From: a virus
DNA: 32,995 bases
Direction: 5' to 3' (one strand)
Virus record (IMG/VR): IMGVR_UViG_2706796521_000001
Coordinates: 1 to 32,995 of that record
Shown here piece by piece: positions 546 through 32,995 of the stretch; the stretch's first letter is position 1; each line of letters starts with the position of its first letter. The notes under the pieces are model-generated. The model was not told the DNA's origin. It did not search any database and was given only the letters and a program-made list of their open reading frames with translations. Both the position numbers and the translations under genes were made by a program.

Positions 546-1099
546 ATATATATATATTAGGAGCTATTAAATTATTAATTAATAATTAGGAGAAACCAAA
601 ACTTTTACGGCTGAAAATTATAAATATACTAAACATATTCGTATATTATAATATATTATATAATTTCCAAATTTTTAGTTTGCAATTAGTAATTTATGCT
701 TCAATTTTTTGCGTTTGCAATGGAGGAAATTGGAAGTTTAGAGAGAAAAGTTTAAATACTAGCAGAAGGCATTTAATTATGTTAGTGAGGACTATCCTTC
801 TTTTTTTTATTATTTTTTTATATATATTAATATTATTACAATCGTAATATCTTAATATTTATATATTTGTATATTATGCTAATTAGTTAATTAGTATATT
901 ATATATATTAGCTAATTAGCTAGATAGTAGTTATTAATTATATAATTATTCTTCAGTTCAAAATAGATTCTTTTAGACTTTTTCACCGCTCGTAATCAAT
1001 TTGTTTCATGCTAGGAATAAAAAGTGGCCTTTTTTAAAAAATTGGAGATAGAAAAATTGGAACCTTCAATTTATATATGCAGCGATGATAAAAATTGGA

Positions 1100-1192
1100 A
1101 ACTTCTTATTGAAAGTCGAGAGATACAAACGTAAAAAGTTGAAGAAAACTTTAAATACTAGTTTATGCATATATGATATCAAGGTGTAAGAA
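1100..1192 (+). promoter_or_regulatory. Early (anti-defence class) promoter of the HTH gene
   Basis: Purine-rich BRE region, TTTAAATA at 1150..1157, SD aggtg, ATG 43 nt after the TATA start. Confidence 0.85.
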
Positions 1193-1360
1193 ATGAAAAG
1201 ACAAGTAAGAGTTGGGAACACAATATATTACGTAGAAAGTGAGGATGATCTAGTTAGCGTGACTCACGAGCTAGCCCGACAGGGCATAAAAATTGAGAAA
1301 ATAGCGTATTTGTTGGGCGTTAGCGTGCGAAAAGTTCGCCAATATTTGGAGAGTTGTTAA
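1193..1360 (+). CDS. 55-aa helix-turn-helix protein, probable Acr-associated regulator (SIRV2 gp01 / Aca8-like); missed by the ORF track
   Basis: Own translation: MKRQVRVGNTIYYVESEDDLVSVTHELARQGIKIEKIAYLLGVSVRKVRQYLESC. HTH signature IAYLLGVSVRKVRQYL; 30/55 identical to the right-arm paralogue; directly upstream of acrID1. Confidence 0.9.
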   Translation: MKRQVRVGNTIYYVESEDDLVSVTHELARQGIKIEKIAYLLGVSVRKVRQYLESC

Positions 1361-1418
1361 GAAGTTAAGTTTTCTTTTTTTCTTCTTAGTTTCTAATGCT
1401 ATTTTTTTCTATTTTTTA

Positions 1419-1584
1419 TTTTCTCCTAATTAGCTAAGATTATGCTTAGTTTTTTTCAGGATTGTGATACTAATTCTAAAGGTTGAAAAAATTGAGAGGT
1501 GAAAAAATAAAGAGATAGAGAAGTAAAAAGATAGAGAAAGATTTAAATAGCAGAAGATACATAGATTATGTTGGGGAAAGAAAA
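1419..1584 (+). promoter_or_regulatory. Repeated upstream element plus early promoter of acrID1
   Basis: TAATTAGCTAA..TTTTTTTCA..GATACTAATTC block, then GTAAAAAGATAGAGAAAGATTTAAATA (TATA 1542..1549), SD gggga, ATG at +43. Confidence 0.85.
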
Positions 1585-1875
1585 ATGAATTACAAAGAAT
1601 TAGAAAAAATGTTAGATGTAATATTTGAAAATTCCGAAATAAAAGAAATAGATTTATTTTTTGATCCTGAGGTCGAAATTTCAAAGCAAGAGTTTGAAGA
1701 TCTTGTGAAAAATGCAGACCCTCTTCAAAAAGTTGTTGGAGACAATTATATAACAGAAACTTTTGAATGGTGGGAATTTGAAAATCAATACTTAGAGTTT
1801 GAACTTGATTATTATGTCAAAGATGAGAAAATATTTGTTTTAGAAATGCATTTTTGGAGGAAAATTAGAAAGTAA
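1585..1875 (+). CDS. acrID1: Anti-CRISPR AcrID1 (type I-D inhibitor, binds Cas10d)
   Basis: 96-aa acidic protein MNYKELEKMLDVIFENSEIKEIDLFF...LEMHFWRKIRK, recognised as the rudiviral AcrID1 sequence; terminal location, early promoter, HTH neighbour. Confidence 0.88.
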   Translation: MNYKELEKMLDVIFENSEIKEIDLFFDPEVEISKQEFEDLVKNADPLQKVVGDNYITETFEWWEFENQYLEFELDYYVKDEKIFVLEMHFWRKIRK

Positions 1876-2068
1876 TCCTATTTTTTTAATTTTTTAATTT
1901 CATTTTAATTTTCTCTTTTTCTTTTTCTTCTTACTAACTAAAACTATGAACTATTTTTTTCAAAATTGTAATATTATTCCAGTTAGTTGAAAAAATGGAG
2001 AGATGAAATGATAAATAAAAATTTAAAAATGTCATAATCTAAAAGAAAATATAGAGGTGAGAAAAAGT

Positions 2069-2377
2069 ATGAATAAAGATATGGAAGAAGTAATAGATAC
2101 AGTTCAAAGATTAATACAAGAAAATATAATCGGTGAGAAAGTTGTCAGTTTTGAAAATTCAATAGACTTACACATTCAAGAATTCGAATGGGTGATAGAA
2201 GTTTTAATTTATGCAGATGTTAAACATTACTGGTTTACTATCGGGCGTGAAAAAAAGAGATATGATATATTTATTTTTGATAATACTAGAGAATTAAAAC
2301 GAATTATTATTGAAAGTCATTTTAATGTTGAAAGAATTTTTATTGATTCAATACAATTAATTAGATATCCAAGATAA
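2069..2377 (+). CDS. Hypothetical early protein (102 aa), candidate anti-defence gene
   Basis: ORF from the track. Start moved to ATG 2069 because GTG 2057 lies within the SD gaggtg. Own TATA+GTC promoter at 2022..2033; T-rich terminator follows. Confidence 0.8.
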   Translation: MNKDMEEVIDTVQRLIQENIIGEKVVSFENSIDLHIQEFEWVIEVLIYADVKHYWFTIGREKKRYDIFIFDNTRELKRIIIESHFNVERIFIDSIQLIRYPR

Positions 2378-2400
2378 TTTTGTTTTTTTCTTTTTTTCTA

Positions 2401-2504
2401 ATTAGCTAATTCTATCTTTAATTTTTTTCAAGTTTGGAATGATAATTCTATTTTTTAGCAATTTCCTAGAATGAAAATTTAAAATTGTCATAGTTTTATC
2501 GAAA
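2401..2504 (+). repeat. 104-bp direct repeat, copy 1 (upstream element plus TATA-GTC promoter)
   Basis: Near-identical to 3829..3932; 63-bp exact core at 2442..2504. Confidence 0.9.
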
Positions 2505-2520
2505 TTTATTAGTGAGAAAT

Positions 2521-2862
2521 ATGGGCTATCAAGATATTCCAAATGAAATAATTAAACTAAGCGAAAAATATGTGAAAATTGTCGGAGAAAGAAAAAATAT
2601 ATTTAAAACTTTAAGAAGAAAAAGTATCGAAAAAAAGATAATAGAAAAATTTGAAAAATTTTGTGATATAATTCCATTATATATACTTGAAAATATACTT
2701 AAACCAAATAATGTTTTTGAATATAGTTTCGAAAAAAGTTATAAAAACAAAAGTGAGAAAATTGAAGTTATTACTAAAGCTAGACTAAAATTTAAATATG
2801 AAAATTATGAATTAAAATTATTAAGTGTTAAATTTGAAAAATCAATTAATCTAATTTCATAA
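2521..2862 (+). CDS. Hypothetical early protein (113 aa), paralogue of 30584..30907
   Basis: ATG 2521 is 43 nt from TATA 2478. Shares N-terminal helix and C-terminal LKL..(V/I)..EK with the right-arm 107-aa ORF. Confidence 0.8.
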   Translation: MGYQDIPNEIIKLSEKYVKIVGERKNIFKTLRRKSIEKKIIEKFEKFCDIIPLYILENILKPNNVFEYSFEKSYKNKSEKIEVITKARLKFKYENYELKLLSVKFEKSINLIS

Positions 2863-2993
2863 TTTTTTTATTAGGAATACTATTTCTAAAAGTTAAAAAA
2901 TCAGAGAGATGAAAAAATAGAGAGATAGAGATGTAAAAAGATAGAGAAAGCTTTATATAGTAGTTTGACAAATATAATATTGAGGTAAGAAAG

Positions 2994-3389
2994 ATGAGTC
3001 AAGAAATCGAATTTCCCGTAAATATAAATTTAGAAAGTCAAGAAGAAAAAATTCAACCGCAAGTCAAGAAGTTATACAAATTTTTTAATTACGTGAGTAA
3101 CTACCATAATGGGAAAATTGATACTATGACGACTCAAAGTTACCTATATTTATTCGTTAGAGACGGTGCCATTAAGGTTGATTATGATGGCGAAATTTCA
3201 ATAGAGACGACGGGTCTAAATATTTCAATTTGGGTCAATAGAGTAGAAAAAGAAGTAGAAATTAACGGTAATGCTAATGGATACGAGTTTAATATACAAT
3301 TTACCGGAAAAGTAAAAGTAAGGACAGAAGAAAATAGACTTGTATTGACGTTAAAGCCTGAGACAATTCCTCAAATTACAACTCATTAA
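2994..3389 (+). CDS. Hypothetical beta-rich early protein (131 aa), candidate anti-defence gene
   Basis: ORF from the track; early promoter TATA 2952..2959, SD gaggt, T-rich terminator 3395..3450. Confidence 0.85.
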   Translation: MSQEIEFPVNINLESQEEKIQPQVKKLYKFFNYVSNYHNGKIDTMTTQSYLYLFVRDGAIKVDYDGEISIETTGLNISIWVNRVEKEVEINGNANGYEFNIQFTGKVKVRTEENRLVLTLKPETIPQITTH

Positions 3390-3612
3390 TCATTTTTTAT
3401 TTTCTTTTTTTATTTTCTATTATTTTCTTCTTTTTTATGTTTTTTGTTTTTCTATAATTAGCCAATTCTCTCGATTGTTTTTTTCAAGTTTGTGATACTA
3501 ATTCAAGAGGTTGAAAATATAGAGACATAAAAAGTTAGAGAGATACAAACGTAAAAAGATAGAGAAAACTTTAAATATTAGTTTTTACATATATAAGAAT
3601 GAGGTAAGAAAA

Positions 3613-3759
3613 ATGAAAACGAAAATGAGTAAGAAAGAAAACAAAAAGAATAAAGTTTATTTTTGCAGAATGTGTAGTTTTGTAGCTACAGATTTAGATG
3701 AGTTAGATTTTCACTATAAGATGAGTCATGAATCATTTGATGAAGACTCTTTTTGGTAA
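3613..3759 (+). CDS. 48-aa C2H2 zinc-finger microprotein; missed by the ORF track
   Basis: Own translation: MKTKMSKKENKKNKVYFCRMCSFVATDLDELDFHYKMSHESFDEDSFW (C-x2-C-x12-H-x4-H). Early promoter TATA 3570..3577, SD gaggt, terminator downstream. Confidence 0.8.
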   Translation: MKTKMSKKENKKNKVYFCRMCSFVATDLDELDFHYKMSHESFDEDSFW

Positions 3760-3828
3760 GCTTTAAGTTATTTTATTTTTTATTTTCTCTTTCTAATTCT
3801 TCTTTTATATGTTTTTTCTTTTTCTATA

Positions 3829-3932
3829 ATTAACTAATTCTATCTTTAATTTTTCTCAAGTTCGGAATAATAATTCTATTTTTTAGCAATTTCCTAGAAT
3901 GAAAATTTAAAATTGTCATAGTTTTATCGAAA
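3829..3932 (+). repeat. 104-bp direct repeat, copy 2
   Basis: Near-identical to 2401..2504. Confidence 0.9.
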
Positions 3933-3948
3933 ACATAGTGAGAAAAAA

Positions 3949-4266
3949 ATGGAATTTGAAGATTTAGATGTAGTTCTATATGTATTTTTTGAAAATCAAG
4001 AAATGAAAAGTTTTGAATTTGAATTTAAAGAATTATTTGAAATTACTGAAAATGGATTAAGATATCTTGTAGGAGTTCCAGATTCAAGAAATAAAATCAA
4101 GAGTAATAGCGAAATTATTGAAGAATTTATATATTATCAGAATGATAATATTGTTATTAAGTTGACATTTTATTATACTAAAGACACGAATAAAATTTAT
4201 ATAAGAAAAATTTACGGTTGGAGAGAGAAAAGATCAGAATCTGAGAATGAAGAAGACAATATTTAA
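3949..4266 (+). CDS. AcrID1-family paralogue (105 aa)
   Basis: MEFEDLDVVLYVFFENQEMKSFEFEF and YYTKDTNKIYIRKIYGWRE parallel the AcrID1 N- and C-terminal motifs. Confidence 0.8.
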   Translation: MEFEDLDVVLYVFFENQEMKSFEFEFKELFEITENGLRYLVGVPDSRNKIKSNSEIIEEFIYYQNDNIVIKLTFYYTKDTNKIYIRKIYGWREKRSESENEEDNI

Positions 4267-4287
4267 GTATGCTATTTGATTAATTTA

Positions 4288-5220
4288 TTATTCTTCTAAT
4301 TCAATTTCCAAATCATTATTACTTTTCTTTATATTTTGTGGCTTATTTTTCTTTATTTCACTTGCAATTTTATAGTTTTGAATTATCTCATTAACTAGAC
4401 TATCTAGTCCCATTTTTTTTAATTTCTTAGCATATATCGTATATTTATTTTCAATATTCCAATTATTATATTTTAAAATCCAAGCATTTATAGTTTGTAA
4501 AATTTTTACATTTGAAAGATCATATTCAAATGGAAAATTTGTCTTATCTAAAAATTCATATAATAGTTCTTCTTCTTCTTTTGTTAATGTTCTTTTTTTT
4601 CTATCGCCTACATATCTTCTAGAACCATCAAACCAAAAGATCTCTCTGAAACCTGAAATTCTTGTATAAGTTGAAGTATCCATAGAATTAGCATTATCAA
4701 AAGTTTGGAGAAAATATGGAGCAGACATTCCTAGAACATGAAGTTTTTTTGTGTATTTTCTTAGATAATAATACCAAGGAAATGTATAGATTAAAATTTT
4801 TAATTTACTAGATGCAATTATTCCGCCAAATGCTATATAATCAGTGTATTGTTTATAAAAATCTAAGGCTTCATCTACTTCTCTAATTGGATATAAATGT
4901 ATAACTGGGATAATTCTTTCTATATATTCAATTTTAGTATATAGATATTCGAAATATTCGAAATTCTTTCTATTTAATGGTTCAAAAATAGATGGAATAT
5001 CAAGAGAAAAAAATGCATAAGCATTATATGTTTTATATTTTTCTAATACATCTTTTACTGAAATTTTCAAATTGTAAAGGCTAATTTGATAACCGCCACT
5101 GTCAACCCAAGTTTCATTTTTCCAAGTTATTTTTTTGTTATGTAATTGATTAATCAAAACTGGAAAATTTGTCTTGAGTAATAGTTCTTTTGATGATGTT
5201 ATTTCAAATACTAATTTCAT
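4288..5220 (-). CDS. tRNA-guanine transglycosylase (TGT/DpdA-like) family protein, 310 aa
   Basis: TGT-fold motifs WVDSGGYQ, FSLDIP, PVIH, IAFGG, HVLGM, SMDTS. No zinc-binding Cys cluster seen. Confidence 0.8.
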   Translation of the reverse strand: MKLVFEITSSKELLLKTNFPVLINQLHNKKITWKNETWVDSGGYQISLYNLKISVKDVLEKYKTYNAYAFFSLDIPSIFEPLNRKNFEYFEYLYTKIEYIERIIPVIHLYPIREVDEALDFYKQYTDYIAFGGIIASSKLKILIYTFPWYYYLRKYTKKLHVLGMSAPYFLQTFDNANSMDTSTYTRISGFREIFWFDGSRRYVGDRKKRTLTKEEEELLYEFLDKTNFPFEYDLSNVKILQTINAWILKYNNWNIENKYTIYAKKLKKMGLDSLVNEIIQNYKIASEIKKNKPQNIKKSNNDLEIELEE

Positions 5221-5228
5221 ATAACTTT

Positions 5229-6428
5229 CTATTTTGGTATGACATTTATTTTATTTCTTCTTAATAAGTATACTATAGATCCTATTATTGGTATTATTAT
5301 AATTCTTAATATTGTATCTTCTATATTTCCAGAGATTACAAATTTATAAAATATTGGATTTTGATATCCTAAGTAGAAGAATAGAAATATCTGAATTGCT
5401 AAAGATGTTAGAACTATAGAAAATAATTTTTTATCATTCATGAGTTTCAAATATGCAAATGCTACAATTATGAAATTCCAGAAGATGAACAATAAACCAT
5501 CAAGTCCAAAAGATATATTAAATCCAAGTAGATTTTCTAGAACATTTGCTATTGTTTCTGTCGCAAAAATCAATAATAAAATATTTGGATTTATTTTGCT
5601 AAATGTTTCAGGTAATACTTTATCGAAACTCATAGTTTGAATTAATCTACTTTGGATTTTATTTGCAATTGGCATGTAACTAAAGAACCAAATTGGCATT
5701 AATGCAAACAATATTGACAAATTTGAATAGCTATCTAGAATTGAAAGTATCACGACTACTAAATAGCTTACAAAATATCCGACCATACTAGATTTTTTAA
5801 TATTTTTTATTTCTCCAGCTATGTAACTGATTGCATTTATGAATATAAACGCTGATAAATCAAATAGTAATGCAGATAATAAAGTATTAGAAATTGTGAA
5901 GTTTTGATATTGAAAATTAAATGATTTAAAAACTATAAATAATGCTACTATTATTTGTGCAATTGCTAATATATCAACAATTTTTGCATATATTCTCTTA
6001 TTAGCGATAATTAGTAAAACAATAGGAAATAAAGATTCAACAATTAGAAATTGTTCAAATTGATTTTGAATATTAAAGTTTAAGAGTACAAGATCACCTA
6101 AGATTGGTTGAGATAGTACATATGTTAACCATAATGAAATTCCAAAAATTGTAAAGAATTTTGAAGAAAATGCAGTTCTAATATATGCATAATCACCGCC
6201 ATTAAGTGGATATTTTGTTGTTAAACGATAATACATTAATAATAGTGGAATTTCAAATACTGCTCCAATTAAAATTGCGTATAATAAGTTAACATTTTTT
6301 AGCAAACTACTGACAAATAATGGATAACTTATCCCGCTTAAAATTCCTATATAGAGAAGATTTATTGAAAAAATATCTAGGATATTAAATGATTTTACAA
6401 TTCCAGAACTTTTTCTTTCAAGTTCCAT
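5229..6428 (-). CDS. APC-superfamily amino-acid permease-like membrane protein, 399 aa
   Basis: About 11-12 hydrophobic segments; ELERKSSGIVKSF start, P..GGDYAYI motif and R....MSFDKVLP.F.KI motif typical of APC transporters. Confidence 0.8.
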   Translation of the reverse strand: MELERKSSGIVKSFNILDIFSINLLYIGILSGISYPLFVSSLLKNVNLLYAILIGAVFEIPLLLMYYRLTTKYPLNGGDYAYIRTAFSSKFFTIFGISLWLTYVLSQPILGDLVLLNFNIQNQFEQFLIVESLFPIVLLIIANKRIYAKIVDILAIAQIIVALFIVFKSFNFQYQNFTISNTLLSALLFDLSAFIFINAISYIAGEIKNIKKSSMVGYFVSYLVVVILSILDSYSNLSILFALMPIWFFSYMPIANKIQSRLIQTMSFDKVLPETFSKINPNILLLIFATETIANVLENLLGFNISFGLDGLLFIFWNFIIVAFAYLKLMNDKKLFSIVLTSLAIQIFLFFYLGYQNPIFYKFVISGNIEDTILRIIIIPIIGSIVYLLRRNKINVIPK

Positions 6429-27586: not shown

Positions 27587-27859
27587 TTAACTAGATCTCC
27601 AAAAATCAATTTCAACAATATAAACTTTACTGTCTTTCACATAATAATTAATTATTGAATTAATATTTTTTCTATATTCACAAATATCAGTTCTTATATT
27701 TCTATCATCATATCTATGCAATAAATCGGCATCTTTAACAATCTCTTCAAATTGGTCATATGAAGCTATTACTTCTTTATTAAATCTTAAATTTATTCTT
27801 ATTATTGTCGAATCTTGGAAAAATTTATCAATAATCGATTTTAATTCTTCAAATTCCAT
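27587..27859 (-). CDS. AcrID1-family paralogue (90-93 aa)
   Basis: MEFEELKSIIDKFFQDSTI...INYYVKDSKVYIVEIDFWRSS parallels AcrID1 (YYVKDEKIFVLEMHFWRK). Confidence 0.85.
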   Translation of the reverse strand: MEFEELKSIIDKFFQDSTIIRINLRFNKEVIASYDQFEEIVKDADLLHRYDDRNIRTDICEYRKNINSIINYYVKDSKVYIVEIDFWRSS

Positions 27860-27871
27860 TTTTATCACCTT

Positions 27872-28159
27872 TTATCTTTTTTCACGAAATAGATCAATTT
27901 CTAAGATATTTATAAAACCATCTTCTTTAAAATAATGAATAATAAGCTTAACTACTTTGTTTGATAATTCATAATATACAAATTCATCTGAAGTTATCCA
28001 GGGATCCTTATCTATAAAAGATAGATTTGGTCTCCTTACTAATTCGTTATATTCATTTTCTGTAAGTATTAAAGATCTCTTAAACGCTAAAGTTAACTCA
28101 TCAAGATTTTTTTCTTTGAAGAACATGTCTATAATTCGTTTAACTTTCTTTAAATTCAT
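27872..28159 (-). CDS. AcrID1-family paralogue (95 aa)
   Basis: MNLKKVKRIIDMFFKEKNLDELTLAF...HYFKEDGFINILEIDLFREK. Confidence 0.85.
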   Translation of the reverse strand: MNLKKVKRIIDMFFKEKNLDELTLAFKRSLILTENEYNELVRRPNLSFIDKDPWITSDEFVYYELSNKVVKLIIHYFKEDGFINILEIDLFREKR

Positions 28160-28198
28160 ATCTCATTTCACCTACTTCTATTCCTAGACTGAAAAAAA

Positions 28199-28471
28199 TT
28201 AAACTTCACGCCACATCTTAATTTCTTTTACATAAGCTATATCATCAATCTCTTCATATTTAAATAAGAATTTCGTGAACTCATTTTGTTCAAATTCAAC
28301 TGTAAAAATTGCATTTTTTACAGATGTATTTACGAATTTTTTATCTTTTGTCAACTCATAAAATTCATCACCTGATAATTCAATTGAATCATTAGTTTTA
28401 ATTATGATTTCCTTTATTTCAGCATTTTTTGAAAATATATTAACAAGTTCTTTTAATTCTTTAAATTTCAT
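28199..28471 (-). CDS. AcrID1-family paralogue (90 aa)
   Basis: MKFKELKELVNIFSKNAEIKEIII...YVKEIKMWREV; TATA-GTC promoter 28510..28521. Confidence 0.85.
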   Translation of the reverse strand: MKFKELKELVNIFSKNAEIKEIIIKTNDSIELSGDEFYELTKDKKFVNTSVKNAIFTVEFEQNEFTKFLFKYEEIDDIAYVKEIKMWREV

Positions 28472-28620
28472 TTACCTATTCACCACCTTCAAAAATCTAA
28501 AAGAATTATGACATTTTTAAATCTTTATTTTTTGGAATAAGTAGGATTAATATTTGGAATTTGAGAAAAATTATCGATAGAATTAGGTAATTAGGAGAAA
28601 AGAAAAAATTTAAAAAAAGA

Positions 28621-28923
28621 TTAACTTTCAAATTGACTTTTTAATTTTTCTGCTATGCTAGAATGCATACACAAAAACTTTTTGTTTCTTTTTACTTTTT
28701 TAACTTTTATGAAAAATATGCCTTTCTCTACTAATCTCATTATCCTGAAATAAGCATATGGTTGATATTTTTGTGCATCTTGTTCAAATAAAGTTAGTTT
28801 ACCATTAGAATTGTACATGGAAATACATAGATCTCCAACCTCATCCTTTTGTGCAATTGAAAAAAACTTTTGTAATAACTCTTTTTGTTTTGACCTTAGA
28901 CTTAACTTTATTTGTTCAGTCAT
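28621..28923 (-). CDS. Hypothetical early protein (100 aa, possibly winged helix), candidate anti-defence gene
   Basis: Start at ATG 28923, 43 nt from TATA 28959..28966, SD ggtga. Confidence 0.82.
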   Translation of the reverse strand: MTEQIKLSLRSKQKELLQKFFSIAQKDEVGDLCISMYNSNGKLTLFEQDAQKYQPYAYFRIMRLVEKGIFFIKVKKVKRNKKFLCMHSSIAEKLKSQFES

Positions 28924-29151
28924 TTTTCTTTCACCAATATACATTATGTAAAAACTCATATATAAAGCTTTCTCTCAATTTTTACGTTTATAGCTTTCTA
29001 CTTTTTTATGCTTACAATTTCTGCGGAATTAGTAAAAATATCTAAAAAATGAGAAAAATTATCGATAAAAATAAATAATTATAAGAAAATAAGAAATTAG
29101 AAATACTAGAAATAATATTAAGAACTTGAAAAAAATTATTGATAAAAAAAA

Positions 29152-29601
29152 TTAACTTGATAACAAATATGCTAATAAGACAAGAACATCAGTAGGAACA
29201 TTAACGCCTGTGATATCTTTTATCGCATTTAGTAATGAAGATAATCCTTTTATATCTATTTGGCTTTTGCTTGTATCGACTAATAAATTTCCGCTGATAT
29301 CATCTGCTACATTCAGTAAATCGAAATTGACAACTTCATAATCACTTAGAAATATTGGTGGACTTATAGGAATGAAGGAAAATAGTAAATTCCCCTTTTT
29401 ATCGCTCCATAACTTTAGTATTACTTTTTTTGATAACGGAACATAAAACACATCCTTATTGATTGCTTTCTTGATGATATATTGGTATACGCCGAAATGT
29501 GTCTTTATCACAAGCAATGATAGTCTACTACTATCAAGACTATCGTCATTACTGAAAAAATAATATGCTTTAACTTTTTTTTCGACTTGTGCTTTTTCCA
29601 T
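29152..29601 (-). CDS. Early protein (149 aa) in the type III-B Acr locus; probable AcrIIIB2
   Basis: Early promoter TATA 29635..29642. Lies immediately beside pvap, where SIRV2 has acrIIIB1. The AcrIIIB2 identity comes from recollection and position only. Confidence 0.6.
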   Translation of the reverse strand: MEKAQVEKKVKAYYFFSNDDSLDSSRLSLLVIKTHFGVYQYIIKKAINKDVFYVPLSKKVILKLWSDKKGNLLFSFIPISPPIFLSDYEVVNFDLLNVADDISGNLLVDTSKSQIDIKGLSSLLNAIKDITGVNVPTDVLVLLAYLLSS

Positions 29602-29748
29602 CCTTTTCACCAATACTATATATGTAAAAACTAGTATATAAAGTTTTCTCTAATCTTTTACATCTCTATTTTTCATCTTCAAAACTTGAAAAATATGCAA
29701 AAATAAAATATAAAAAAGACTAAAAAAATAATACCTTAAAAATTAAAA

Positions 29749-30045
29749 TTATTTAGCTTGCGTATTTGGATTTTGATCTTTTGCTTTTTCTCTAGCTAAT
29801 GAATTTACATCTCTTAAAGTATCCATATTCAATAATGCATTTATTCCAGTTACTGTCGTGTCCTTAATTGATTCAATAGCAATAACTGTACTTTTTGACA
29901 TTTGATCAACAGCTTTAGCAAAATTCTCATTTGACTGCTTTTCATTATATAAGTGTACTATTTCTCCAATTACGAAACTACCAATTAACACTCCTGTTAC
30001 TGCAAAAAATCCATATAGTGCTCCTTCTAATAATGTTATCGCCAT
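29749..30045 (-). CDS. pvap: Virus-associated pyramid protein PVAP (P98), virion egress
   Basis: MAITLLEGALYGFFAVTGVLIGSF.IGEIVHLYNEKQSNENFAKA, recognised; N-terminal TM helix. Confidence 0.95.
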   Translation of the reverse strand: MAITLLEGALYGFFAVTGVLIGSFVIGEIVHLYNEKQSNENFAKAVDQMSKSTVIAIESIKDTTVTGINALLNMDTLRDVNSLAREKAKDQNPNTQAK

Positions 30046-30148: not shown

Positions 30149-30403
30149 TCACAATTTTTTAGTACGCACTATTTGAATTTCATATAATAAATCTTTTTCA
30201 TTATCTGTTAACTCCATAGTATTAATTCTTATCTCAATATTATCGTTTAAAGGATAAATAAATTGACTAAATGCTAATTCAATTAATTGCCGATAATCTT
30301 CTTCATTAATTTCAAAAGAAATCTTAAATTTTAAACTTAATTCTTGTATATTAGAATCTTCAAAAAACAAATCTATAATTTTTTTAACTTCTTTAAAACT
30401 TAT
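30149..30403 (-). CDS. AcrID1-family paralogue (84 aa) with ATA at the start position (non-canonical start or pseudogene)
   Basis: SFKEVKKIIDLFFEDSNIQELSLKF matches the family. SD context ttggggaaagaaaa is identical to acrID1 but followed by ATA, 43 nt from the TATA. Confidence 0.65.
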   Translation of the reverse strand: MSFKEVKKIIDLFFEDSNIQELSLKFKISFEINEEDYRQLIELAFSQFIYPLNDNIEIRINTMELTDNEKDLLYEIQIVRTKKL

Positions 30404-30583
30404 TTTTCTTTCCCCAATATTTCCATAAAAATATGACAATTTTATATTTTTACATCTTAAATTTTTCTATCTGCAGAATTAGTATCTGGAAAATGAAAAA
30501 AATTCGGCATAGCTTTAGCTAATATTTAGAAAAGAAAAAAACAAACTAAGAATTAAAAAGAAGAAAAAGAAAAAAAGAAAGAC

Positions 30584-30907
30584 TTACTTTTCAAGTTCAA
30601 TTTTAGTCAATTTTAACATATTGTTTCTTTTTTCAAAAAATAATCTTATGTATCTAGTTTCGTGATATATACCAAATACAGTGCCAAAATCATAATCAAA
30701 TCTGAATTCAATCTTATCATTAAAGATATTGATATTATTTGAATTTATCCCGTAATATTCCATAATTTTTTCAACAATTTCTTTAAGCTGTTTTTCGCTA
30801 AATGTCAGTTCTTTTTTCGTTTTTAACACTTTCCTCTGTACGAATTGATCATTTAAAAAATCTCTAACTACTGAAATTATCTTTTGACTTAATTCTTGAC
30901 CATTCAC
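30584..30907 (-). CDS. Hypothetical early protein (107 aa), paralogue of 2521..2862
   Basis: GTG start 43 nt from TATA 30943..30950; similar N-terminal helix and C-terminus. Confidence 0.82.
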   Translation of the reverse strand: MNGQELSQKIISVVRDFLNDQFVQRKVLKTKKELTFSEKQLKEIVEKIMEYYGINSNNINIFNDKIEFRFDYDFGTVFGIYHETRYIRLFFEKRNNMLKLTKIELEK

Positions 30908-31120
30908 CTTTTTCCCCTCATTCTTTCATATGTATCTTCTACTATTTAAATCTTTCTCTATTCTTTTATCTTTCTATCTCTTTATCTTTTCACCGTCTTG
31001 ATTTTTCAACCTCCTGAATTAGTATCTGAAAAATGAAAAAAATAGTCCATAGTCTTAGATAATAAAGAAAAAATTAAAAAATAAAAATAAGAAAAAAATT
31101 AATGAAATAAAAAAAGAAAA

Positions 31121-31411
31121 TTATAGCTTAATCTCTCTCCACATTTGTAACTCCATTACGTAATATTTCTCATCTTTCTTATAGTAGACCAATAACATTT
31201 TAACGTACCTTTTTCCTTCTTCCCAATATTCGTAAATGTCAGTTATTACACCGTAATCTTCTGTACCAGTTACCAAGGTACCTTGACCGATTAACTGTTT
31301 AAATTCTTCTGGACTAACTTCAACATCTTCCCTAAATCTCAGCTGTAACTCGTCTACTGTACTGTCTTCAAATACTTGATTTACGATTTGATTTAAGACT
31401 TCATACTTCAC
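31121..31411 (-). CDS. AcrID1-family paralogue (96 aa), mirror position of acrID1
   Basis: 33/96 identical to AcrID1 without gaps; near-identical upstream cassette. Confidence 0.9.
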   Translation of the reverse strand: MKYEVLNQIVNQVFEDSTVDELQLRFREDVEVSPEEFKQLIGQGTLVTGTEDYGVITDIYEYWEEGKRYVKMLLVYYKKDEKYYVMELQMWREIKL

Positions 31412-31632
31412 TTTTTACTCACCACTTACATATATGTATCTTCTGCTATATAAATCTTTCTCTATCTTTTTACTTCTCTATCTCTTTATTTTTTCACCTC
31501 CTTGATTTTTCAACCTTTACAATTACTATCACAAAACTGAAAAAAACTAAGCATAATCTTAGCTAATTAGGAGAAAAATAAAAATTCTAAAAAGGAGAAT
31601 TAGAACTTACAAATAAAAAAACAAAACTTAAC

Positions 31633-31803
31633 TTACCAACAGTCTTCTAAATATTTCCTGACCTTTTTCTCACTGATTCCTAGTCCGTATGCAATCTCCT
31701 TAACTGTAAACCCTCTTTTGACTAACTCATGAACTATGCTAACTAGGTCATCCTCACTTTCAATATAGTACGTTTCTCCTTCAATTATTACTTCTTTTTT
31801 CAT
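31633..31803 (-). CDS. 56-aa HTH protein (Aca8/gp01-like paralogue)
   Basis: MKKEVIIEGETYYIESEDDLVSIVHELVKRG...; start is 43 nt from TATA 31839..31846. The track's extra N-terminus is translated promoter sequence. Confidence 0.9.
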   Translation of the reverse strand: MKKEVIIEGETYYIESEDDLVSIVHELVKRGFTVKEIAYGLGISEKKVRKYLEDCW

Positions 31804-31859
31804 TTCTCTTTCACTGATATCATATATGTAAAAACTCATATATAAATCTTTCTCTAAAC

Positions 31860-32995
31860 TTTTACGTTTGTATCTCTCGACTTTCAATAAGAAGTTTCCA
31901 ATTTTTATCATCGCTGCATATATAAATTGAAGGTTCCAATTTTTCTATCTCCAATTTTTTAAAAAAGGCCACTTTTTATTCCTAGCATGAAACAAATTGA
32001 TTACGAGCGGTGAAAAAGTCTAAAAGAATCTATTTTGAACTGAAGAATAATTATATAATTAATAACTACTATCTAGCTAATTAGCTAATATATATAATAT
32101 ACTAATTAACTAATTAGCATAATATACAAATATATAAATATTAAGATATTACGATTGTAATAATATTAATATATATAAAAAAATAATAAAAAAAAGAAGG
32201 ATAGTCCTCACTAACATAATTAAATGCCTTCTGCTAGTATTTAAACTTTTCTCTCTAAACTTCCAATTTCCTCCATTGCAAACGCAAAAAATTGAAGCAT
32301 AAATTACTAATTGCAAACTAAAAATTTGGAAATTATATAATATATTATAATATACGAATATGTTTAGTATATTTATAATTTTCAGCCGTAAAAGTTTTGG
32401 TTTCTCCTAATTATTAATTAATAATTTAATAGCTCCTAATATATATATATCTGGAAATGTATAATTATTTGGAATTTAGGAATTTACAATTAAGCAATTT
32501 TATAATATAAATTTCAACAAATGATAGAATATTTGGAATTTTGTAATTTCCAATTTACATAACTAATTGGAATAATTTTCCAAAGTGAACAATTAATTGG
32601 AATTTTGGAATTTTCAATTTTATTAACTTTTTGTAATAAATTTCCAAGGTGTACAATTTATTGGAATTTAGGAACTTAGGAATTTACAATTTAGTTAACT
32701 TATTGGAATATTTTTACAAGGTGTAGAATTAATTGGAATTTAGGAACTTCCAATTTATTAACTTTATTTTGAAAATTACGCAAAATGACAGAATAATTGG
32801 AATTTAGGAATTTAGGAATTTTCAATTTATTAACTTTGGTGCGAAAAAAACGAAAAAAACGAAAAAAATTGGAATTTCCAATTTATCTCATTAGTTGCGA
32901 AATTTACGCAAAAAATGAAAAAAACTCCTAATACCTTCTTAATGTTTTATAATTGTAGAGTAGTAAAAAGGAAATGGGAGTTTTTTTCATTTTTT
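31860..32995. repeat. Right inverted terminal repeat (ITR), 1136 bp, with terminal hairpin 32910..32995
   Basis: Reverse complement of 1..1136. Confidence 0.97.

Follow-up and report, generated by a model that had tools for sequence, protein, structure and literature searches.

A probable early promoter module before single-gene anti-defence cassettes of the rudivirus SIRV3: agreement with the published regulatory sequence, and a phased upstream box

The linear viral DNA held as IMG/VR record IMGVR_UViG_2706796521_000001 (32,995 nucleotides (nt), analysed at full length and called the window below) carries on both arms a series of small single-gene cassettes, each preceded by one of two recurrent promoter-like sequences, designated here class 1 and class 2. 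This arrangement raises the question of whether the two sequences are strong early promoters and whether standing behind one of them is sufficient to designate a gene as an anti-defence candidate, as was proposed in a first-pass annotation made from the sequence alone. For class 1, the promoter set and its interpretation are already published for the same virus, whereas class 2 is the ordinary rudiviral promoter. Sequence and coordinate matches identify the window as the full linear genome of the rudivirus SIRV3 (NC_030884): the coordinates of BHS13_gp45, complement(31633..31803), and BHS13_gp39, complement(28621..28923), in Supplementary Data 1 of Bhoobalan-Chitty et al. (Nat Commun 2024, PMC11065993) are identical to those of open reading frames (ORFs) of the window, and the ORF at 1585-1875 matches PDB 6EXP, "SIRV3 AcrID1 (gp02) anti-CRISPR protein", along its entire length (expectation value (E) 1.9e-59). 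The ends of the window form a perfect inverted repeat of 1136 bp, and the arms are about 87% identical to those of SIRV1 and SIRV2.

Class-1 promoters were searched on both strands with the 27-nt pattern GTAAAAAGATAGAGAAARMTTTAWATA, allowing up to three mismatches. Nine matches were obtained (+ strand, 1131, 1523, 2933 and 3551; - strand, 28959, 29635, 30943, 31447 and 31839), while 0.00 were expected in shuffled sequence. A weight matrix built from these nine sites separated them cleanly, with scores of 28.9-37.1 bits for the sites themselves and 24.5-35.8 bits when each was left out in turn, against 14.0 bits for the best other site of the genome and a maximum of 18 in shuffles; the nine promoters of the first-pass annotation are thus borne out. 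All nine 27-mers end in GAAA(G/A)(A/C)TTTAWATA, with the TATA box TTTAWATA immediately 3′ of a purine-rich TFB-recognition element (BRE) and with G at -6 and A at -3 in every case, which is the TFB preference cited in PMC11065993. Counted from the first T of TTTAWATA, the start codons lie 43, 43, 42, 43, 43, 41, 43, 43 and 43 nt downstream, exactly as had been claimed. T-rich terminators had also been described, and a run of at least seven T was found no more than 20 nt from the stop codon in 11 of the 14 cassette genes that have a promoter; the other three are gp06 (T6 at +17), gp07 and gp42 (T7 at +44). As expected for an archaeal virus, sigma-70-like sites were at chance level in the window (25 versus 21 expected) and the window scan returned no hairpin terminators.

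The conserved unit is much larger than the BRE and TATA box. In an alignment of 36 non-redundant sites, taken from SIRV1-3 and from metagenomic contigs and anchored at the TATA box, conserved blocks (Table 1) extend from -39 to +42, forming an extended promoter sequence common to several single genes of one genome. Outside SIRV3, 29 of the 30 non-redundant sites scoring at least 27 bits (in SIRV1, SIRV2 and IMG/VR contigs) have an ORF start 40-43 nt past the TATA box, and in 19 the distance is exactly 43 nt. To judge from these sites, the fixed spacing is a trait of the whole promoter family and not of SIRV3 alone, because the conserved unit extends right up to the ATG. A broader IMG/VR scan with the 18-nt core gave more than 111 matches, mostly lone chance matches in AT-rich contigs, of which the informative ones are those in multi-match rudivirus-like contigs.

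An early regulatory sequence composed of a TTTAWATA TATA box after a purine-rich BRE was described in rudiviruses by Bhoobalan-Chitty et al. (PMC11065993), and the class-1 sites have the same composition. In SIRV2, 11 of 13 early genes have the published motif in front of them, aca8, acrID1 and acrIIIB1 among them, and the expression of the motif-bearing early genes drops after 1 h. Virus-specific matrices, applied to the 100 bp upstream of each start codon, were then used by these authors to predict anti-defence genes (ADG) in 17 rudiviruses carrying aca8, including SIRV3. Nine SIRV3 genes were listed, namely BHS13_gp01 and gp45 (labelled Aca8), gp02, gp43 and gp44 (AcrID1), gp05 (ADG.13), gp06 (ADG.04), gp39 (ADG.09) and gp40 (ADG.14), and the nine class-1 genes correspond to these entries one for one. 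The likeness to the T6 promoter of SSV1 and to strong host promoters was pointed out in the same article. The observation that single-gene anti-defence cassettes of both arms share one stereotyped, strong early promoter is therefore a correct rediscovery of the published rudivirus model, down to the same nine genes.

The set behind the module comprises two Aca8 copies, three AcrID1-family genes, an AcrIA3 homologue, AcrIIIB2 and two unknowns. The Aca8 proteins, gp01 and gp45, are helix-turn-helix (HTH) proteins of 55-56 amino acids (aa) that match PDB 2X48 (SIRV1 ORF55; E 8e-18 for gp01) and share 55% aa identity; each gene has its class-1 site 43 nt 5′ of the ATG. The founding AcrID1, gp02, is a validated anti-CRISPR (Acr) protein whose structure was solved bound to Cas10d (PDB 6EXP/6THH). 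Its paralogue gp44, encoded at mirror coordinates, is 35% identical to it (DUF1374, E 1e-17), and gp43 is a more distant relative, falling below the PF07118 cut-off and matching the DUF1374 paralogues by hhalign at E 8e-4. AcrIIIB2 (gp40), for which no homologue was found in the phage collection searched, is also validated and blocks turnover of the Cmr-alpha complex (PMC10681719). The gp39 protein is 69% identical to SIRV2 gp47, which was reported in a 2024 preprint to be AcrIA3, a winged HTH repressor of the host I-A cas promoter, with SIRV3 gp39 named as its homologue; a weak effect of gp39 was seen in a III-B reporter assay (PMC10681719). Among the two unknowns, gp06 matches a Pfam zf-C2H2 type domain (E 2e-6). 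The other, gp05, is 56% identical to SIRV2 gp07 and gave no match in Pfam or PDB; a large protein database returned only gp05 itself, ESM Atlas scores were below 0.9, and the single-sequence AlphaFold (AF2) model has a predicted local distance difference test (pLDDT) value of 60. Hence the statement that known Acrs use these promoters is correct for class 1, where gp02 and gp40 are validated and gp39 is a homologue of one. The broader proposal, that every unknown gene behind such a promoter is an anti-defence candidate, is supported for the class-1 core, but gp01 and gp45 encode a putative regulator and class 2 gives no such inference.

Taken together, the nine class-1 genes very probably constitute an immediate-early anti-defence regulon driven by one conserved, T6-like module. 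The T6 promoter of SSV1 is the model strong archaeal BRE/TATA promoter and is an immediate-early fusellovirus promoter. The SSV1 record places box A of T6 at 5753, the start of the transcript at 5783 and the ATG codon at 5797, i.e., 30 and 44 nt past the first T of the TATA box. Class 1 fits this geometry, which by analogy suggests a transcription start about 30 nt past the TATA box and a leader of about 13 nt carrying the ribosome-binding site. Upon entry of the viral DNA, the module would most likely recruit the host TBP and TFB without helper factors, transcription would terminate at the oligo-T runs 3′ of each ORF, and binding of Aca8 to the shared sequence is predicted to switch the set off at a later stage. 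The regulon is supported by the motif, spacing and gene identities observed in the window and by the SIRV2 timing and Acr activities reported in the papers, whereas timing, transcription start and Aca8 repression in SIRV3 are inferred.

Several points weigh against an immediate-early anti-defence regulon. The early timing comes from SIRV2 data reported in PMC11065993, the transcription start is carried over from SSV1 T6 by analogy, and the binding of Aca8 was still "predicted" in a September 2026 paper. In addition, the effect of gp06 in the III-B reporter assay was weak in the wild type, and the Cmr-alpha module was not affected by it (PMC10681719). Finally, gp04 (class 2) and gp43 (class 1) both match phrog_13653 (E <1e-37), although they do not match each other by BLASTP. 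One family thus stands behind both classes, and promoter class is therefore no clean functional label. A competing interpretation is that class 1 is simply a strong constitutive promoter devoid of temporal meaning, with the genes behind it being a mix of highly expressed accessory functions. This interpretation can draw on the presence of the same BRE/TATA before host housekeeping genes (Cren7, SlaA and chaperonin; PMC11065993) and on the lack of demonstrated anti-defence activity for gp05 and gp06. It is distinctly unlikely, however, given the occurrence of the motif at 11 of 13 SIRV2 early genes, with expression falling after 1 h, and the fact that at least three of the seven non-regulator class-1 genes of SIRV3 are validated Acrs or a close homologue of one. 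Moreover, the additional conserved blocks (the distal box, GTAAAA, the AG at +10 and the ACATAT at +18) exceed what a bare strong core promoter needs.

The similarity between the promoters could also be a mere relic of recent cassette duplication or gene conversion rather than a selected regulatory element. The class-1 promoters of gp02, gp43 and gp44 do share an identical extended upstream sequence and leader (AGCAGAAGATACATA), as duplication of a promoter together with its gene would leave, and they probably represent a sub-type that spread along with the gene. Likewise, the first two cassettes of each arm, gp01/gp02 and gp45/gp44, start at exact mirror coordinates (1193/31803 and 1585/31411), as would remnants of a longer terminal repeat. 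Yet the mirrored ORF pairs retain 63% and 56% nucleotide identity (55% and 35% in aa), while the intergenic region between the mirrored cassettes is 85% identical across the arms and near-perfect over the promoter, a pattern unlike neutral decay after duplication. The module also stands before proteins among which no similarity was detected (Aca8, ORF131, the zinc finger, the AcrIA3 homologue and AcrIIIB2), and it is preserved, with its spacing, in SIRV1, SIRV2 and metagenomic contigs. Duplication history alone is therefore insufficient, and a mere relic is very improbable. An integron-like cassette array was considered as well; neither an attC-like site nor an integrase was seen, although no systematic recombinase search of the window was made, and each island cassette owns its promoter. 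An immediate-early regulon under constraint at its promoters thus remains the preferred reading of the class-1 set.

The second promoter class requires a different conclusion. The class-2 sequence TTTAAAAWTGTCATA was found at all five places where it had been reported, before 2069, 2521, 3949, 28471 and 30403, with TATA-to-start distances of 47, 43, 43, 50 and 43 nt; the codon at 30403 (gp42), where the initiator Met of the family aligns, is however ATA and thus non-canonical as a start. Genome-wide, the pattern T[A/T]TA[A/T]A[A/T]N1-2GTC occurs at 17 sites compared to about 4-6 expected in shuffles, and 13 of the 17 lie 7-50 nt 5′ of a listed ORF start, also in the genome centre. The core genes behind such sites include those for a 56B-type ribbon-helix-helix (RHH) regulator (6853), a PHA01746-like protein (7715) and a 440-aa ATPase (8136), among others. 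The generic rudiviral promoter is characterized by a GTC placed 1-2 nt past the TATA box at many promoters of the genome; in SIRV1 and SIRV2, a GTC following the TATA box is a feature of most promoters, according to a review summarizing Kessler 2004 (PMC5569661). In a reconstituted system, several SIRV1 promoters were weak relative to T6, and the host activator Sta1 bound three of them. The class-2 sites of SIRV3 have no G at -6, i.e., no strong BRE. Class 2 is the ordinary rudiviral TATA+GTC promoter and is by itself no mark of anti-defence genes; because it also precedes core genes and lacks a strong BRE, no anti-defence inference can be drawn from it.

The class-2 genes of the islands are anti-defence candidates through homology only, on the basis of DUF1374 for gp07, gp36-38 and gp42 and of the phrog_13653 family shared with gp43 for gp04. 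Matches to PF07118 (DUF1374) above the cut-off were obtained for gp02, gp07, gp36, gp37, gp38, gp42 (N-terminal half) and gp44, while gp03 and gp04 had no PF07118 match and no relation to the DUF1374 paralogue profile by hhalign. The presence of AcrID1-family genes behind class-2 promoters is in agreement with the published motif prevalence of 0.51 among AcrID1 homologues (PMC11065993). In gp42, the DUF1374 match is limited to profile positions 2-49 and the sole in-frame upstream start is a TTG at 30439, inside the TATA/GTC element; gp42 may be a paralogue undergoing decay, or its translation may begin at a non-canonical codon. It is also worth noting that gp41, 92% identical to SIRV2 gp49 (P98, annotated "pyramid forming protein"), is encoded inside the right island with neither promoter, and location alone is therefore no criterion for an anti-defence function.

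Table 1. Cassettes, upstream boxes and promoter-module blocks of the SIRV3 window (block positions are relative to the TATA box)
Feature	Position	Strand	Description
gp01 cassette	1131..1360	+	class-1 promoter 1131-1157, TATA 1150; aca8 ORF 1193-1360, 55-aa HTH protein
gp02 cassette	1523..1875	+	class-1 promoter 1523-1549; acrID1 ORF 1585-1875; Pfam DUF1374; published ADG
gp03 cassette	2022..2377	+	class-2 promoter 2022-2036; ORF 2069-2377; phrog_31459 (unknown function); absent from published ADG list
gp04 cassette	2478..2862	+	class-2 promoter 2478-2492; ORF 2521-2862; phrog_13653; absent from published ADG list
gp05 cassette	2933..3389	+	class-1 promoter 2933-2959; ORF 2994-3389, 131 aa; published ADG, family ADG.13
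gp06 cassette	3551..3759	+	class-1 promoter 3551-3577; ORF 3613-3759, 48 aa, single C2H2 zinc finger; published ADG, ADG.04
gp07 cassette	3906..4266	+	class-2 promoter 3906-3920; ORF 3949-4266; AcrID1-family paralogue, Pfam DUF1374 E 4e-35
gp38 (28199-28471), gp37 (27872-28159), gp36 (27587-27859)	27587..28521	-	tandem after class-2 promoter 28507-28521; all three DUF1374
gp39 cassette	28621..28985	-	class-1 promoter 28959-28985; ORF 28621-28923, AcrIA3 homologue, family ADG.09
gp40 cassette	29152..29661	-	class-1 promoter 29635-29661; acrIIIB2 ORF 29152-29601; singleton family ADG.14
gp41	29749..30045	-	pyramid (egress) protein PVAP; within right island; neither promoter class
gp42 cassette	30149..30446	-	class-2 promoter 30432-30446; AcrID1-like ORF, expected start 30403 = ATA
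gp43 cassette	30584..30969	-	class-1 promoter 30943-30969; ORF 30584-30907, GTG start; distant AcrID1-like, phrog_13653; published as AcrID1
gp44 cassette	31121..31473	-	class-1 promoter 31447-31473; AcrID1 paralogue 31121-31411, GTG start; published ADG
gp45 cassette	31633..31865	-	class-1 promoter 31839-31865; second aca8 copy 31633-31803
Scaffold box	1451..1476	+	65 nt before class-1 TATA of gp02
Scaffold box	2423..2448	+	29 nt before class-2 TATA of gp04
Scaffold box	3479..3504	+	65 nt before class-1 TATA of gp06
Scaffold box	3851..3876	+	29 nt before class-2 TATA of gp07
Scaffold box	30476..30501	-	29 nt before class-2 TATA of gp42
Scaffold box	31016..31041	-	65 nt before class-1 TATA of gp43
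Scaffold box	31520..31545	-	65 nt before class-1 TATA of gp44
Module block: distal AGATA.AAA box	about -30 to -22		
Module block: GTAAAA	-19 to -14		
Module block: BRE TAGAGAAA	directly 5′ of TATA		purine-rich TFB-recognition element, TAGAGAAAG
Module block: TATA box TTTAWATA			
Module block: AG	+10/+11		
Module block: ACATAT	near +18		
Module block: GGTGA/GAGGT	near +31		ribosome-binding site, then start codon

Further upstream, the two promoter classes share a 26-nt element, TTTTTTCA-N2-TTTGKGATANTAATTC, referred to here as the scaffold box, which is present in seven copies in the window compared to 0 expected and gave no match in 845 kb of unrelated viral loci. The distance from the end of the box to the TATA box is exactly 65 nt for class 1 and 29 nt for class 2, and mostly the same in SIRV1 and SIRV2. 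For class-1 genes, the box falls at -134 to -109 from the ATG, beyond the 100 bp analysed in PMC11065993. It may be an operator common to both promoter classes that has not been described before. A palindrome, CTAATTAGCTAA, was also recorded in this DNA, with 29 matches at up to two mismatches versus 9.6 expected; copies at 908-919, 1426-1437, 2398-2409, 31559-31570 and 32077-32088 lie in the terminal repeats and just past several cassette terminators, upstream of the scaffold box.

Comparison with SIRV2 revealed replacements that stop at ORF boundaries. SIRV3 30538-29607 is 90.6% identical to SIRV2 32459-31530, and SIRV3 29155-28425 is 78% identical to SIRV2 30778-30047; between these aligned blocks only the ORF differs, being acrIIIB2 in SIRV3 (29152-29606) and acrIIIB1 in SIRV2 (30779-31529). 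This is a non-homologous replacement in which the promoter and terminator are common to both viruses and the breaks lie no more than about 6 nt away from the start and stop codons; on the 3′ side of acrIIIB2, homology to SIRV2 resumes at the stop codon. A similar replacement is observed for gp06, at the position of which SIRV2 has gp08-gp09. The scaffold could provide homology arms for clean start-to-stop ORF swaps of the kind that exchanged acrIIIB1 and acrIIIB2. A tentative and on balance doubtful model treats the intergenic DNA as a fixed scaffold (T-runs, CTAATTAGCTAA, phased box, promoter and leader up to the ATG) that serves as homology arms for ORF exchange between co-infecting rudiviruses and/or as a second operator. 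The upstream box and the replacements stopping at ORF boundaries may be the sole parts of this analysis that go beyond the literature.

Some further observations concern the genome ends and the occurrence of SIRV3. The perfection of the terminal repeat stops at 1136, within the gp01 promoter (1131-1157) just past GTAAAA; the distal half of this aca8 promoter is repeat DNA, while its BRE/TATA half already diverges between the arms. A degenerate class-1 BRE/TATA (TAGAGAGAAAAGTTTAAATA, 14 bits) is present in both terminal repeats, at 732-758 (+) and 32238-32264 (-), with the ATG of a very hydrophobic 22-codon ORF (779-847) 28 nt past it. This element could be the promoter of a short transcript inside the repeat. 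Finally, 14 RNA-seq runs (8 studies, two host labels) contain 40-70% of the words sampled from window positions 1100-4300. SIRV3 seems to be present in many laboratory cultures of its host, consistent with the reported carrier state.

In archaeal viruses, where sequence homology fails, deducing function from a shared promoter is a proven route to anti-defence genes, those for anti-CRISPRs included. In SIRV3 this logic has already been applied and partly validated, and no new candidates are added here. The class-1 genes that are still uncharacterised are gp05, gp06, gp43 and gp44, and a class-2 promoter is no basis for ranking a gene as a candidate. For their part, the phased upstream box and the swaps at ORF boundaries hint at how anti-defence islands are rebuilt.

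Among known systems, the Aca8-associated ADG sequence (PMC11065993) shows no essential difference from class 1, as it was described in the same genome with the same BRE and TTTAWATA consensus, conserved flanks, nine genes and inference from promoter to function. The SSV1 T6 promoter is also closely similar: its core, GATAGAGTAAAG-TTTAAATA, is nearly identical to that of class 1, GATAGAGAAAGA-TTTAAATA, with GATAGAG-type repeats in the flanks, and comparison of SSV1 5741-5797 with the class-1 consensus revealed in both a GATAGAG-type BRE, TTTAAATA and an ATG about 44 nt downstream (44 nt in T6 and 43 nt in class 1). However, T6 belongs to a temperate virus, where it drives a multi-gene operon and has the RHH protein F55, acting at ATAGATAG repeats, as its repressor. 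SIRV3 is a lytic or carrier-state virus with copies of the module in front of individual genes, and Aca8, an HTH protein, is the presumed repressor. Class 2, T[A/T]TAAAA[A/T]TGTCATA, corresponds to the generic rudiviral TATA+GTC promoter (Kessler 2004, per PMC5569661) and serves both core and island genes, with the difference that the island copies carry an extended conserved upstream module, the box 29 nt before the TATA. Similarly, the acr-aca operons of bacterial phages combine a strong early promoter, small anti-CRISPR genes and a small HTH protein as presumed repressor, a role that for Aca8 in SIRV3 is predicted. The phage acr and aca genes share one promoter and one transcript, whereas in SIRV3 a separate copy of the promoter stands before aca8 and before each acr gene, giving a regulon rather than an operon.

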